DNA of 64,000 nt, taken from the NCBI GenBank assembly GCA_964016885.1, contig OZ024742.1:22134001-22198000 (forward strand). The letters run 5' to 3'. This DNA comes from Eledone cirrhosa (Eukaryota). Below, in pieces: positions 18,628 to 54,473 of this stretch. The notes under the pieces were generated by a model, which ran no database searches, was not told where the DNA came from, and saw only the letters and a list, made by a program, of their open reading frames with translations. Position numbers and translations under genes: made by a program. Within the stretch, counting starts at the first letter, position 1; each line of letters begins with the position of its first letter.

Positions 18628-21161
18628 ACTTTGAATAACTTTGAAATGTTTTGGCCAGTATTGGCCCAGGCCATGTCTAACTTAATAGCACCACCTGGCG
18701 AAGTCTTTCAATTCAGGATTTGGGCACCATGGCCCATTCGAGAAGAGAATTACTGTTTGCGGAGACGTATCCGGGTGTGGGTGGTTTGTCCGGGATTACT
18801 TGGAGGAATTTGTCCAAAGACTTCTTGAATTTTGTGTGGTCAGTTTCTGTTTTGACGTGTCCTGGTGTGATGTTGAAGAGAGCAGGGCCGATTGAGGTGA
18901 AATAATTGTGCCGTATTGTTGTTATGAGTTGCGATTTAGATTTTTGAATGGGACGGATAGCACGGGGCCCAAGCCTTGGGTGTATCTTGAAGGCGATGCC
19001 AACATCATTTGGGCAGTGATGATGGAACATTTTCCACATCATGCAGATAATATAACGCTCACGGCGACGTTGGAGTGAGTAAAGTTTCAGGTTTTCCAAT
19101 CGACCCCAGTAGTCAAGGTCTGACATGCCATCTATCTTTTTCGTGATTGCCCTTTGAGGAGCTTCAAGTTTCATGATACTTTGTTTCGTGTGGGGAGACC
19201 ACAGTGGACAACAGTATTCAAGGTGTGGTCGGGCGAAAGTAGAGAAGAGAAGGATAATGGTGCGGGAATCTCTCGACTGGAAGGTTCTGACGATCCAGGA
19301 ACACATTCTGCGGGCCATGTCAACTTTGCTGCTTATATGCGTGGTCCAGCTTATGTTGCTGTCCACGGTTACTCCCAAGTCTCTGATGTTGTTAGATGCC
19401 ACGAGAGTTTCCCCGGAGGGAAGGGAGTACGGGAGTTTCAGAGCATCCTCTTTTCCAAAGTGGATCAGTTCGAATTTGTCTTCGTTCAGTAACATGTTGT
19501 TCTTTTCTGCCCATTGGGTAACAGCCAGTAGGTCTGACTGAAGGCTTATCCGGTCATCCACGCCATTGATGACCTTTTGGAGCTTGGAATCATCAGCGAA
19601 AATTTTAATGTTGCTGTGTTTGATGATGTCAGTGATGTCATTAATATAGATGATGAAGAGAAGTGGGCCCAACACAGTGCCTTGTGGGACTCCACTACTG
19701 ACTTTGGCTGGGCTTAATTTGACTCCCTCAACTACAACATGTTGGGTTCTGTTTGACAGGAAGCTCTTGATCCACTGCAGCAGCTTTCCAGTGACACCAA
19801 TATTGGACAGCTTTCTCAGTAGAATGTTATGATCAACCCTGTCAAAGGCCTTGCTGAAATCAAGGTAGATAACATCAGTGTTGGAACCCTCTCCCAAGGC
19901 TCTCAAAATGTCATCAAAGTGATGCAGTAGTTGCGTCAGGCAATCCCTTCCATTACGGAATCCATGCTGGTTGGAGTTCAGCATATTGTTACTCTCAAGG
20001 AAGTGTGTCATTCGCGATCTCACCACTCGCTCAAATACCTTAATGATATGAGAGGTGAGTGAGATTGGACGGTAATTCACGGCAAGGGATTTGTTTCCCT
20101 TTTTGAAAACTGGGACAACAGACTGGGATAGAAGGTTTTCTGGCACATATCCAGCATCCAGTGAGTTCCGCCACAGATTGGCAAGAGGAGAAGCAAGTTG
20201 GTGTTGACACGCCTTCAAGACACAAGCAGGGAACCTATCGGGACCTACTGCTGAATTATGCTTGATTTCCTTTATTGCCGCCAAGACATCAGGGGCGCCA
20301 AACGTTATGTCCGATAAGGTATAATGGGGAGTAACATCGCCGATACAGCCCAGATCGGCCATATCAGGATTGCTGAAAACAGAGCAGTATTGTTTCTGCA
20401 GTATCTCACCCATGGTTTTAGCATTGTCTTGAAGAGTGCCATTTTCATCAATTAGAGGGCCAACAGTAGAGCCAGTGATTTTGTGTTTTTTTGCAAATGA
20501 AAAGAACACTTTGGGATTGAGTTTGATCTTCTCAATGGCCCAGGCCTCTTCAGCTCTTCTCTGATTGTTGATGAGGGACATTATGTTGTTTTGGAGGTTA
20601 TGTTTTTTAATCTCTAGTGATGAAATGGCAGTCAAGTTGATGTGTTGCTGCTGACAGTATTTCAGCTTGTTGATTTTTTTGTTCGTTCTCTTAATTTTTC
20701 TGATGAGCGTTTTTCTATTTCTAGGATTCTGCTCTTAGATTTGTTTATAGTTCTTAATGGGGTGCGTTTAGCACATATGTTTGTAACAGTGTCCACAAAT
20801 GTCTGCCAGGACTTTTTGATGTTAGTGGGTGTATGAGTGTGCGTGAAGGACCAGTCGACATGTGCAAGATCATGACTGATCGCTTCCCAGTTTGCATTGT
20901 GGAAATCCATAGCGTCAAACGGATGGACAGGAGAAATGACATTGGGTTTGTATATTGGACGGTGGAATCTCAGATCACAGAGAACCATGTCATGATCAGA
21001 GAGTAGAGTTTTCTCCACTGCAATATTGTGGATATTGTCAGTGTGATTGCTGAAAATTAAGTCTAGGACGTTTTTGTGGCACCTCGTTGGTTCGAGCACT
21101 AGTTGGGATAGGAAGAAATCATCCATGAAGTCAAGAAGCGATTCCACAGCTTCCCTGTCAG
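18627..21161 (-). mobile_element. CR1/L2-group LINE; ORF2 (end of APE plus RT) runs into the assembly gap
   Basis: NVLDLIFSN..LSDH (APE end); single frameshift near 20727; short 3' UTR with GGCC hairpin and (TTCAAAGTTA)2 tail. Confidence 0.93.
18713..20635 (-). CDS. Reverse transcriptase portion of LINE ORF2 (640 aa open; true start lies upstream)
   Basis: [53 protein letters not shown] and YSLQRRRER. Confidence 0.9.
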
Positions 21162-22545: not shown

Positions 22546-23350
22546 AATATATATCTTATCTCAATTTACTTTATTTCATTTTATTTTATTTCATTTCATG
22601 TTATCTAATTTTATTTATTTACTTACTTGACTCCATTTATTTATTTATTTATTTATTTATTTATATTTAAATTTAGATTTTAATTTTAAAATTTTAAAAT
22701 TTAAATTTTAATTTTATTTATTTATTTAATTTTTAATTTTTATTTATTTATTTCTTTATTTATTTATTTAATTACATTTAATTACATTTAATTATACATA
22801 TAATTATAATTACACATTTGATTTTAATTTTAATTTAGTCTATGTTATTTGATTTTAGTTTACCTTATTTTATCTTATTTTACGATTATACTATATTATG
22901 TTCTATGTATATAATTTTTAATTTTTAATTGTATATTATTTTATCTCATTCCTTACCCTATATTTTATATTTTATATGTAAGTTTGTTATGTATTTCTTT
23001 GTATTTCTTTTTATATATATTATAAGTCTGTTTTTTACCTATTTTTTACCTATTTTTTACCTACTCTTACCTAATCCCATTATCTTATCTACTCTTGTCT
23101 GTTCTCTTATCCATGTGTCTACTCTTGTCTGTTCTCTTATCCATGTGTACGCTTGTATGTAACTATATGTTGACAGCACACCGCCCAACTGTGACAGATA
23201 GCACCCCTTATTTTTATTTTTATTTTTATTTTTATTTTCACTTTTATTTTTATTTACTTTTTATTCTTATCCTCTATCGTCTATTATTACCTTTCATTCT
23301 TCAATGTCTTGGATTTGTTATTGCTTGTATGGTATGTAATTTAACCTTTA

Positions 23351-23396
23351 TGCTCTGATGAGTCCCACTTATAGTGTGGATGAAACAATGTTAGCA
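23351..23396 (+). ncRNA. Type I hammerhead ribozyme (minimal, PLE type)
   Basis: TGCT-CTGATGA-GTCC CAC ttata GTG t GGAT-GAAAC aat GTT^AGCA: stem I TGCT/AGCA, canonical core, cleavage triplet GUU. Confidence 0.75.
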
Positions 23397-23537
23397 AGTA
23401 AAGATATGCATATGCTATAAGCGTTCTTTGTTATTTATTTATTATATTACGGCTCTGTCCTCAGACATTGAGCTAACCTCATACTGCCTGCTGGATAAGT
23501 GGAGTGTTATACACCCCTGATCCTTTCCCTAGCATAC

Positions 23538-25772
<2,235 letters not shown>

Positions 25773-25832
25773 ATACTTTGGGAGGTTCATGTTGCCAATA
25801 AGAAACACACGCAGCAGTTGCTTTCACTTCAA

Positions 25833-26502
25833 TCTATATATATAAAGCTGTGGTTGTCTGTCTGTCTATCGATTTTTGGCACACATCTCCTCTTAGAATC
25901 TCTGACGGAATTGCACCGAAATTGCTATACTTGTACATTGAGCCCTAGCGAAGACATCGGAAAAAAAATATTTCAAATTGACCCACCCTATGTGACGAAA
26001 TCGAATCTAATGTATCGATTTTTGAGCGTAAGTGACGAGTTATTTCCCTTTGTTCTGTTTATATTGAGCGTCTTACGTTCTGTTACGTTCTGTTTACATT
26101 TTCTGCATGAAAAAATTAAAAAAATTACGCTGGCTTTCTCAGCGTTTAAAATGACATTAACACAATACACGAACAGTTGTCGAGCCAGTAAAATTTTGAC
26201 CTGCAAAATTCATCAGTTCGAACACTAAGCTTCCGTTTTGCTTCATTTCCATTTAAAAGCCTTTTAAAACAATATTTTTACTTGAAAACAAGTCTATTTA
26301 AAGACTACGTAAAACAAGCAAATATTTCGTAAAAAAAAGCAAAAATTATATAAGTTTATTTAAAATATATGTATCTGTAAATTTCGTTAGGCGTGCAGAC
26401 AGACAATCGTGCAGACAGACTTTAAGCCAAAAAAGAAACTTAACATTGTAACTTTAACACAGCTACTGAGCGACCCCGAGCAACGCCGGGCTTTACTGCT
26501 AG
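25833..26502 (+). mobile_element. Non-autonomous Helitron (670 bp)
   Basis: 5' TC start; subterminal hairpin CCCGaGCaacGCCGGG (26475-26490); 3' CTAG; inserted between A and T with no TSD; the empty site ccaa|tttattat is seen in the paralogue near 52420-52435. Confidence 0.92.
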
Positions 26503-26572
26503 TTTATTATATATTTATAAATTTCTGGTTGGTTGGTTGGTTGGTTCCACAACCAGATAGTTGTTTATATAT

Positions 26573-26617
26573 AGTCATAGTTCTTTCGTCACACACTCTG
26601 TGACCTCTTCAGTGACT
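26573..26617 (-). ncRNA. Type I hammerhead ribozyme (left arm of palindrome 1)
   Basis: Exact reverse complement of 26726-26770. Confidence 0.8.
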
Positions 26618-26725
26618 GGGGATTCCTTTCTTTGTTTCTGTGCCTCTCCTTTGTTCTGTCCTACGCCATTTTGTTTCTCTAGGACAGAACAAAGGAGAGG
26701 CACAGAAACAAAGAAAGGAATCCCC

Positions 26726-26770
26726 AGTCACTGAAGAGGTCACAGAGTGTGTGACGAAAGAACTATGACT
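26726..26770 (+). ncRNA. Type I hammerhead ribozyme (right arm of palindrome 1)
   Basis: AGTCA-CTGAAGA-g-GTCACA gagtg TGTGAC-GAAAG aa CTA^TGACT: stem I 5 bp, stem II 6 bp, very short stem III, triplet CUA. Confidence 0.8.
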
Positions 26771-26880
26771 ATATATAAACAACTATCTGGTTGTGGAACC
26801 AACCAACCAACCAGAAATTTATAAATTTATAAATATATAATAAATTTCAGATAAAGAATCTTGCTAAACAAATTCAGAAA

Positions 26881-26948
<68 letters not shown>

Positions 26949-52287: not shown

Positions 52288-52366
<79 letters not shown>

Positions 52367-52514
52367 ATGCTTTGGGAGGGTCATGTTGCCAATAAGAAAA
52401 ACACGCACTAGTTGCTTTCACTCCAATTTATTATAAATTAAATTCATATATTTAAGAATTTATAAATTTCCGGTTGGTTGGTTGGTTCCACAACCGGAGG
52501 GTTGTTCATATATT

Positions 52515-52557
52515 GTCAAAGTTCTTTCGTCACACATTCTGTGACCTCTTCAGTGAC
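52515..52557 (-). ncRNA. Type I hammerhead ribozyme (left arm of palindrome 2)
   Basis: Reverse complement of 52692-52734. Confidence 0.75.
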
Positions 52558-52691
52558 TGGGGATTCTTTTCTTTGTTTTGTGCCTCTCCTTTGTTCTGTC
52601 CTACACCATCTTGTTTGAAAAAAAAAAGAAAAAACAAGATGACGTAGGACAGAACAAAGGAGAGGCAGAAAAACAAAGAAAAGAATCCTCA

Positions 52692-52734
52692 GTCACTGAA
52701 GAGGTCACAGAATGTGTGACGAAAGAACTTTGAC
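52692..52734 (+). ncRNA. Type I hammerhead ribozyme (right arm of palindrome 2)
   Basis: GTCA-CTGAAGA-g-GTCACA gaatg TGTGAC-GAAAG aa CTT^TGAC; triplet CUU. Confidence 0.75.
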
Positions 52735-52917
52735 AATATATGAACAACCGTCCGGTTGTGGAACCAACCAACCGGAAATTTATAAATTCTTAAATTTATA
52801 AATTTAATTTATAATAAATTGGAGTGAAACAGCTGGTGCGTGTGTTTCTTATTGGCAACATGACCCTCCCAACACACGTCTTCAGATAAAGAATCTTGCT
52901 AAACAAATTCAGAAACG

Positions 52918-54473
<1,556 letters not shown>

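Follow-up and report, generated by a model that had tools for sequence, protein, structure and literature searches.

The two short, hammerhead-bearing palindromes in the window, a 64,000-nt stretch of Eledone cirrhosa DNA, are by-products of an ordinary Penelope-like element (PLE); the family is a new member of the PLEs, and the element class is not new. Each palindrome is a 5′-truncated, two-armed PLE insertion that was probably made anew at its site by separate reverse transcription from both ends of a cut (TA)n tract. The observations beneath this reading are the anatomy of the copies, a pairing rule for their outer ends, independent arm lengths, a hotspot of 5′ ends, and the classes of central junctions. 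Opposite-strand hammerhead pairs and inverted pseudo-LTRs (pLTRs) with a tail have already been published.

Anatomy of the palindromes and their hammerheads

The original prediction had described two palindromes with one hammerhead per arm, and both palindromes and all four minimal hammerheads were confirmed by alignment and motif (Table 1). Copy A (52363-52917) aligns with its own reverse complement at 90.7% identity over 507 columns, centre included (arms 52372-52872). Its arms diverge by ∼4% in a 185-nt core, and the window copies in general differ by 3-4% between arms. Copy B (25769-26882), which had been called the same sequence, is a member of the same family that is 81-83% identical to copy A over the palindromic core and 89% identical at the left end; the last 37-38 bp are the same in both. 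The two represent different subfamilies (loop AGAAT versus AGAGT) and are surrounded by (TA)n alike. The shared 3′ tail is present in both, but the 37 bp taken for the whole tail are the final part of a 59-nt tail, with a deletion just 5′ of the remnant in each copy. The last two bases of the copy A junction insert, G and A, abut the right arm and match the cap-like signature described below; they may derive from a cap.

The insert recognized in copy B is likewise present, with its extent corrected to 670 bp ending in TC..CTAG. It is presumably a Helitron, judged by the end rules for such elements. The repeat had 1,572 candidates at first look, with copies 97-98% identical to each other, and in many other copies the initial 222 bp form a tandem repeat. 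The repeat in copy B is young.

The hammerhead cores share the pattern CTGAAGA..GAAA. The predicted fold is of the minimal type that PLE pLTRs contain, with a 4-bp stem I, a bulged G, a 6-bp stem II, and a 2-bp stem III. It resembles the minimal PLE hammerheads of Cervera and de la Pena 2014 (PMC4209133) in its short stem I, its long stem II with a bulged 5′ base, and its tiny stem III, but differs from those described there in loop 3, which is AA or GA and not strictly palindromic. Among the Rfam matches listed (150 of 298), there is no hammerhead, and those in the palindrome stretches are only miRNA-type hairpin models below threshold; the hammerheads are therefore called from motif and structure. 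Exact matches to the 30-nt core number 15,386 in the 3.0-Gb genome compared to 0 for the reversed control, so it is not a product of chance. In a single arm, the hammerhead fold is predicted to be nearly free (−55.0 versus −55.1). The whole palindrome is predicted to form a rod of −395 kcal/mol, in which the hammerhead fold would cost 73 kcal/mol.

Two further features lie in the window. A hammerhead-like core CTGATGA..GAAA at 23355 (23343-23400, + strand) is located about 190 bp before a (TA)n run, and this stretch is possibly the end of a third PLE. At about 19001-20734 on the − strand, there is a 578-aa open frame that we take to resemble LINE ORF2, with an N gap nearby.

Table 1. Features of the two palindromes in the window.
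Feature	Position	Strand	Basis
(TA)n target, left of copy A	52290..52362	.	Sequence
Copy A inverted arm: pLTR, from 5′ hotspot to short 3′ end (E1), without tail	52363..52616	-	Sequence analysis
Minimal type I hammerhead in copy A inverted arm, core start 52553	52515..52557	-	Extent by symmetry with + copy
Copy A junction insert, 13 nt, untemplated	52617..52629	.	Junction parse
Copy A direct arm: 5′ hotspot, hammerhead, ORF start codon 52860, 22-bp deletion 52872/52873, tail to long 3′ end (E2)	52630..52917	+	
Minimal type I hammerhead in copy A direct arm, core start 52696, predicted cut after 52730	52692..52734	+	Motif and fold
Remnant of 59-nt tail, within N-terminal codons of the element's ORF	52873..52917	+	
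(TA)n target, right of copy A	52919..52954	.	Sequence
Copy B inverted arm, ends at E1 (25769), split by later insertion, hammerhead core 26612	25769..26678	-	
Helitron-like repeat, unrelated, 670 bp, TC..CTAG, 3′ hairpin, inserted between A and T	25833..26502	+	
Single untemplated base, read as G at 5′ end of copy B inverted arm	26679..26679	-	Junction parse
Copy B direct arm: hammerhead core 26731, roughly 84-bp deletion 26845/26846, tail to E2	26680..26882	+	

The parent Penelope-like element

The palindrome arm consists of the 3′ UTR/pLTR and the first codons of a PLE that encodes a reverse transcriptase (RT) and a GIY-YIG endonuclease joined by a Neptune-type linker. An autonomous PLE sharing the tail had been anticipated, and the arm was traced to full 4.0-4.4-kb partial tandems of this element. 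Its ORF begins within the arm, 22 nt upstream of the short end, and many arm copies continue upstream into the GIY-YIG frame. Genome-wide, the short-end motif occurs 25,218 times. One locus (L077) harbors an open frame of 863 aa that contains RT (YVDD), a C-x4-C-x2-C linker, and, C-terminally, the GIY-YIG endonuclease (VVY..YIG). The Pfam matches are weak and under the curated cut-offs (RVT_1, E 1e-3; GIY-YIG, E 4e-4), and a search of the PDB gave no match. The best named of 82 homologs is a hypothetical protein from Octopus vulgaris (69%). The linker occurs in every long copy printed and agrees with the CX2-5CxxC pattern of Neptune, although a linker of this type is also present in Nematis (PMC8557442). 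TA flanks are found on both sides in 38 of 42 palindromes and on at least one side in all 42. Judged from sequence, the linker and the bias toward TA microsatellites fit Neptune as characterized in PMC8557442.

The arrangement of longer copies is that of a PLE. One locus on contig C28 begins with (TA)n and an inverted, tailed copy of 510 bp; a truncated copy of 1.4 kb comes next, and then a complete unit of 4,038 bp that ends in (TA)n. This is a textbook PLE partial tandem that forms pLTRs. A second partial tandem is a 4,423-bp array of the youngest subfamily, in which three head-to-tail units lie 4,423 bp apart (G000:C1:63065452-63077325, L367-L369) and the frames are open across the examined parts (all but about 1.4 kb per unit). 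An adjacent inverted 5′-truncated copy yields 36 head-to-head pairs among 37 candidates. Same-strand repeats were seen only at full-element spacing or as rearranged pieces. A long Asn/His/Thr-rich insert, whose length varies between subfamilies, precedes the RT (L368:1668-3026) and recalls the Asn-rich inserts of rotifer Penelope (PMC3846280).

As far as canonical EN+ PLEs are covered by PMC3846280 and PMC8557442, the family shares with them the partial tandems, the adjacent inverted 5′-truncated copy, the tail on one end, the pLTR with first codons, the microsatellite target, and the Asn-rich ORF insert. It differs in the length of the tail (59 nt compared to the usual 30-40) and in that pairing with a single tail holds almost without exception in the present counts, accompanied by a sharp 5′ stop with an untemplated G.

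Outer ends, 5′ ends, and centres

The PLE family has two 3′ termini 59 nt apart, the short end E1 and the tail end E2, and both are followed by ATAT-like sequence in the element. Among the first 100 arms, 47 stop at the short end, 52 stop at the tail end, and 1 reads on. The 36 continuous head-to-head pairs comprise 32 with one end of each type, 1 with two tails, 1 with none, and 2 tandem read-throughs. One short end is thus paired with one tail in 32/34 pairs (p=3.5e-8), with two pairs breaking the rule, after omission of the read-throughs and of one of the 37 candidate pairs (42% element cover). Among 42 short palindromes, 39 have one of each and 1 has two tails; the remaining 2 have a disrupted end and were left out as unclassifiable (39/40 classifiable). 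Duplicate loci were left out of the counts. The tail occurs on either side of the palindromes. The common outer ends, which the original prediction read as the sign of a defined unit, are instead the two 3′ termini of the PLE.

Arm lengths do not follow the tail. In the 32 mixed pairs, the longer arm is the tail-less one in 13, the tailed one in 14, and neither in 5 (equal within 30 nt). Repeated, independent fold-back insertion of a PLE pLTR had been offered as one option, and its first half, repeated independent formation, is supported; simple snap-back or fold-back is unlikely because either arm can be the longer one.

Many arms have their 5′ end within −20..+1 of an ATGGCG motif that lies about 250 nt upstream of the short end. 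The hotspot takes 11 of 66 arms at risk compared to a baseline of 3.4% (p=1.4e-5, for one of 26 bins that was picked post hoc), and it was replicated in arms further along C1 (5/30 versus 2.3%, p=6e-4). A second cluster of 5′ ends (8/75) is located at +46..+67 of ATGGCG, inside stem I and the core of the hammerhead, and is perhaps caused by RT pausing. Pausing would therefore also produce clusters, which counts against reading the hotspot as run-off. Cleavage by the hammerhead was rejected as the source of the 5′ ends, as a single arm out of 100 has its end no more than 5 nt from the predicted cut.

A non-template base just before AAAATGGCG was found 521 times genome-wide compared to 80 times at a control base 40 nt downstream. 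After removal of read-through mutants (17/54 at the hotspot, 37/41 at the control), true junctions make up 37 of the 54 examined at the hotspot base and 4 of the 41 at the control base. A G stands directly upstream in 28 of the 37 hotspot junctions, followed by 0-2 extra A; by script, 16 of these are untemplated, 9 are explained by the partner arm, and 3 by host flank. The G accounts for 16/21 untemplated bases at the hotspot base versus 23/101 at arms ending elsewhere, a comparison for which the site was selected post hoc and each set was processed with a different parser. Across the hotspot as a whole, the excess of G is borderline (20/53 versus 23/101, p=0.06), and a comparison of raw G:T counts was not significant. 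The control base also shows G in 4/4, in only four junctions that by eye are explained by the partner arm. Copy A and copy B each carry an untemplated G on one arm, and two loci (L324 and L342) have G-A at the start of both arms. In L1 and SVA, an untemplated 5′ G has been ascribed to a copied cap (PMC3287187, PMC9341517), and the L1 case is comparable to the hotspot G. The borderline and non-significant comparisons, the G at the control base, and the difference in parsing count against a cap origin of the hotspot G.

Palindromes were collected genome-wide as two outward-facing hammerheads 114-144 nt apart. The pattern has 1,102 matches; among the first 50, 42 belong to the family of copies A and B and 8 to a second family. 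The centres are distinct in 49 of 52 (these 50 loci and the two window copies), in line with the earlier remark that differing central junctions favor formation de novo. Where centres recur, L133 versus L176/L199 and L200 versus L210 are opposite in polarity relative to the tail, and only L176 and L199 agree in both centre and polarity. The 145 junctions parsed divide into 77 with inserts, 20 blunt, and 48 with microhomology. The two arms of one locus are nearly identical (median 1.1%). Across loci, the distance between arms is 0.0811 versus 0.0812 for the same and different end types, and short-end and tail arms form no separate lineages. Homogenisation of arms gave no clear signal among 88 arms (mate nearest in 30, tie in 22, other arm nearer in 36). 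Arm lengths range from 24 to 3,805 nt in position-ordered samples on contig C1, from which most arms and pairs were drawn. Head-to-head insertions thus form one continuous series of sizes, with the short palindromes at its lower end; the short unit was not seen in head-to-tail repeats.

The second family (L132, L134, L141, L180, L183, L185, L196, L207) has the same hammerhead core start, a longer stem II, and the same kind of short palindromes. By eye, 7/8 of its palindromes combine a short and a long end, and the tail measures about 95 nt; a search for its ORF gave mostly tail-only matches and no ORF. The flanks of L008, L183, and L196 contain another short inverted-ended repeat that recurs in (TA)n tracts beside PLE copies.

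Proposed formation of the palindromes and what they may record

In the proposed mechanism, the reaction would start with the endonuclease cutting both strands of the (TA)n target. The short site would be used by one DNA end and the tail site by the other; in the RNA, AUAU follows each of the two sites. Where priming falls on the 5′-proximal pLTR of the transcript, the cDNA would reach the capped 5′ end and run off it, about 250 or 310 nt from its start, in the manner of strong-stop DNA. Subsequently, the two cDNA ends would be joined, either bluntly, through microhomology, or with a small insert between them. As part of the pLTR, the hammerheads would be carried along passively. The evidence leans toward a more specific version, in which the stumps record PLE insertion on one capped sense RNA with two sites 59 nt apart: each site would be taken by one end of the (TA)n double-strand cut and both cDNAs copied to the cap, yielding a palindrome with exactly one tail. 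A single RNA with two priming sites would account for the one-of-each rule, although strand displacement would then be required; alternatively, two RNAs could act in an asymmetric dimer. If true, this version would settle the origin of inverted pLTRs and one-sided tails, against antisense self-priming.

A biochemical counterpart exists in PAc, a Poseidon element from the lizard Anolis (Frangieh et al. 2024, PMC11167929). In vitro, this PLE cuts and extends both strands and starts reverse transcription at both ends of the tail, which as here lies inside the ORF; the target is AT-rich and no ends fall at the hammerhead cut. PAc belongs to another clade; the present family has ATAT target microhomology at both sites and probably two DNA ends that use different sites. 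As far as the work on PAc (PMC11167929) is represented here, no strand difference in the start site was reported, and strand-equal start sites alone would give mixed pairs and not the one-of-each rule, which counts against the proposed mechanism.

The same insertion chemistry may operate with another donor. Many short palindromes would then stem from short RNAs of earlier tailed stumps, as a SINE-like lineage of single arms in which every new insertion makes the palindrome afresh. The putative start site, the hammerhead, and the two sites of priming all lie in the tailed arm; a promoter lies within the pLTR in D. virilis (PMC2377424), and pLTRs act in cis in rotifers (PMC3846280). The youngest subfamily, which is common among the short palindromes, nevertheless includes long copies: 21 of 30 arms read through, and read-through matches number 1,325 versus 2,571 matches in total. 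Neither the subfamily match counts nor the arm read-through revealed a stump-only lineage, and none is needed because the youngest subfamily has these long copies and the 4,423-bp array. As a general source of the palindromes such donors are unlikely; they are compatible with separate priming from both (TA)n ends, and stumps may serve as donors occasionally.

Inverted pLTRs with a tail have been described before, and self-priming on antisense RNA was proposed for them (PMC3846280). A second arm made by self-priming, whether by snap-back of the first cDNA or by fold-back of antisense RNA, with the endonuclease trimming the tail of one arm, would account for the head-to-head geometry, for the microhomology at 48/145 junctions, and for the near identity of arms within a locus. 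Microhomology is absent, however, at the other 97/145 junctions, and under snap-back the tailed arm should never be the shorter of the two, contrary to the 13/32 pairs with a longer tail-less arm. The G-A on both arm 5′ ends of L324 and L342 points to two run-offs from sense RNA. Self-priming is thus quite improbable.

The original prediction had also considered a non-autonomous, ambisense, retrozyme-like family that transposes as a whole palindrome. Common outer ends, similar length, the 1,102 pattern matches, and the same centre and polarity in L176 and L199 would suit such a unit. Against it stand the distinct centres, the opposite polarity of the repeated centres L133/L176 and L200/L210, the range of arm lengths, the absence of short-arm or tail-arm lineages, the predicted cost of the hammerhead fold in the full rod, and a short unit without head-to-tail repeats. 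This reading is largely refuted and very improbable. A unit-mobile palindrome of the MITE or fold-back type was rejected on the same grounds, as neither a shared centre nor a fixed length was found. The non-LTR retrozymes (bioRxiv 10.64898/2026.07.22.740005) are similarly ORF-less, pLTR-derived, and equipped with a type I hammerhead; they are defined by head-to-tail repeats with two same-strand hammerheads, and the palindromes were not placed among them, since the short copies are head-to-head with unique centres. Assembly fold-back is almost certainly not the explanation: inverted PLE structures trouble assemblies (PMC8557442) and no public contig among those listed from four sequencing runs spans copy A, but the arms of the window copies differ from each other, the ends are asymmetric by rule, the centres contain inserts, one arm of copy B carries a later insertion, and left-arm-to-right-arm joints are present in public contigs.

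In L1 twin priming, both target ends prime, and L1 inversions split the RNA between the arms. The palindromes are alike in the proposed priming from both ends and differ in that their arms duplicate the same sequence. The pairing rule and the run-off were not found in the literature searched on Penelope with twin priming, strong-stop, or recent mechanism; older Penelope reviews and supplements may contain them.

The value of the family is mechanistic. An inverted truncated copy and a tail often on one end are noted in PMC8557442, where the formation of PLE inverted repeats and one-sided tails is listed as open. The family supplies about a thousand short palindromes together with young copies whose frames are open over long stretches. 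Twin priming can be told apart from self-priming by three countable rules: a single tail in each insertion, arm lengths that vary independently, and the proposed capped-start run-off. In Schistosoma, pairs of minimal hammerheads on opposite strands, spaced about 100-700 bp, are known (PMC4209133), and the origin of such pairs is likely resolved here. Opposite-strand hammerhead pairs in genome screens call for caution, as they need not represent ambisense or viroid-like RNAs.
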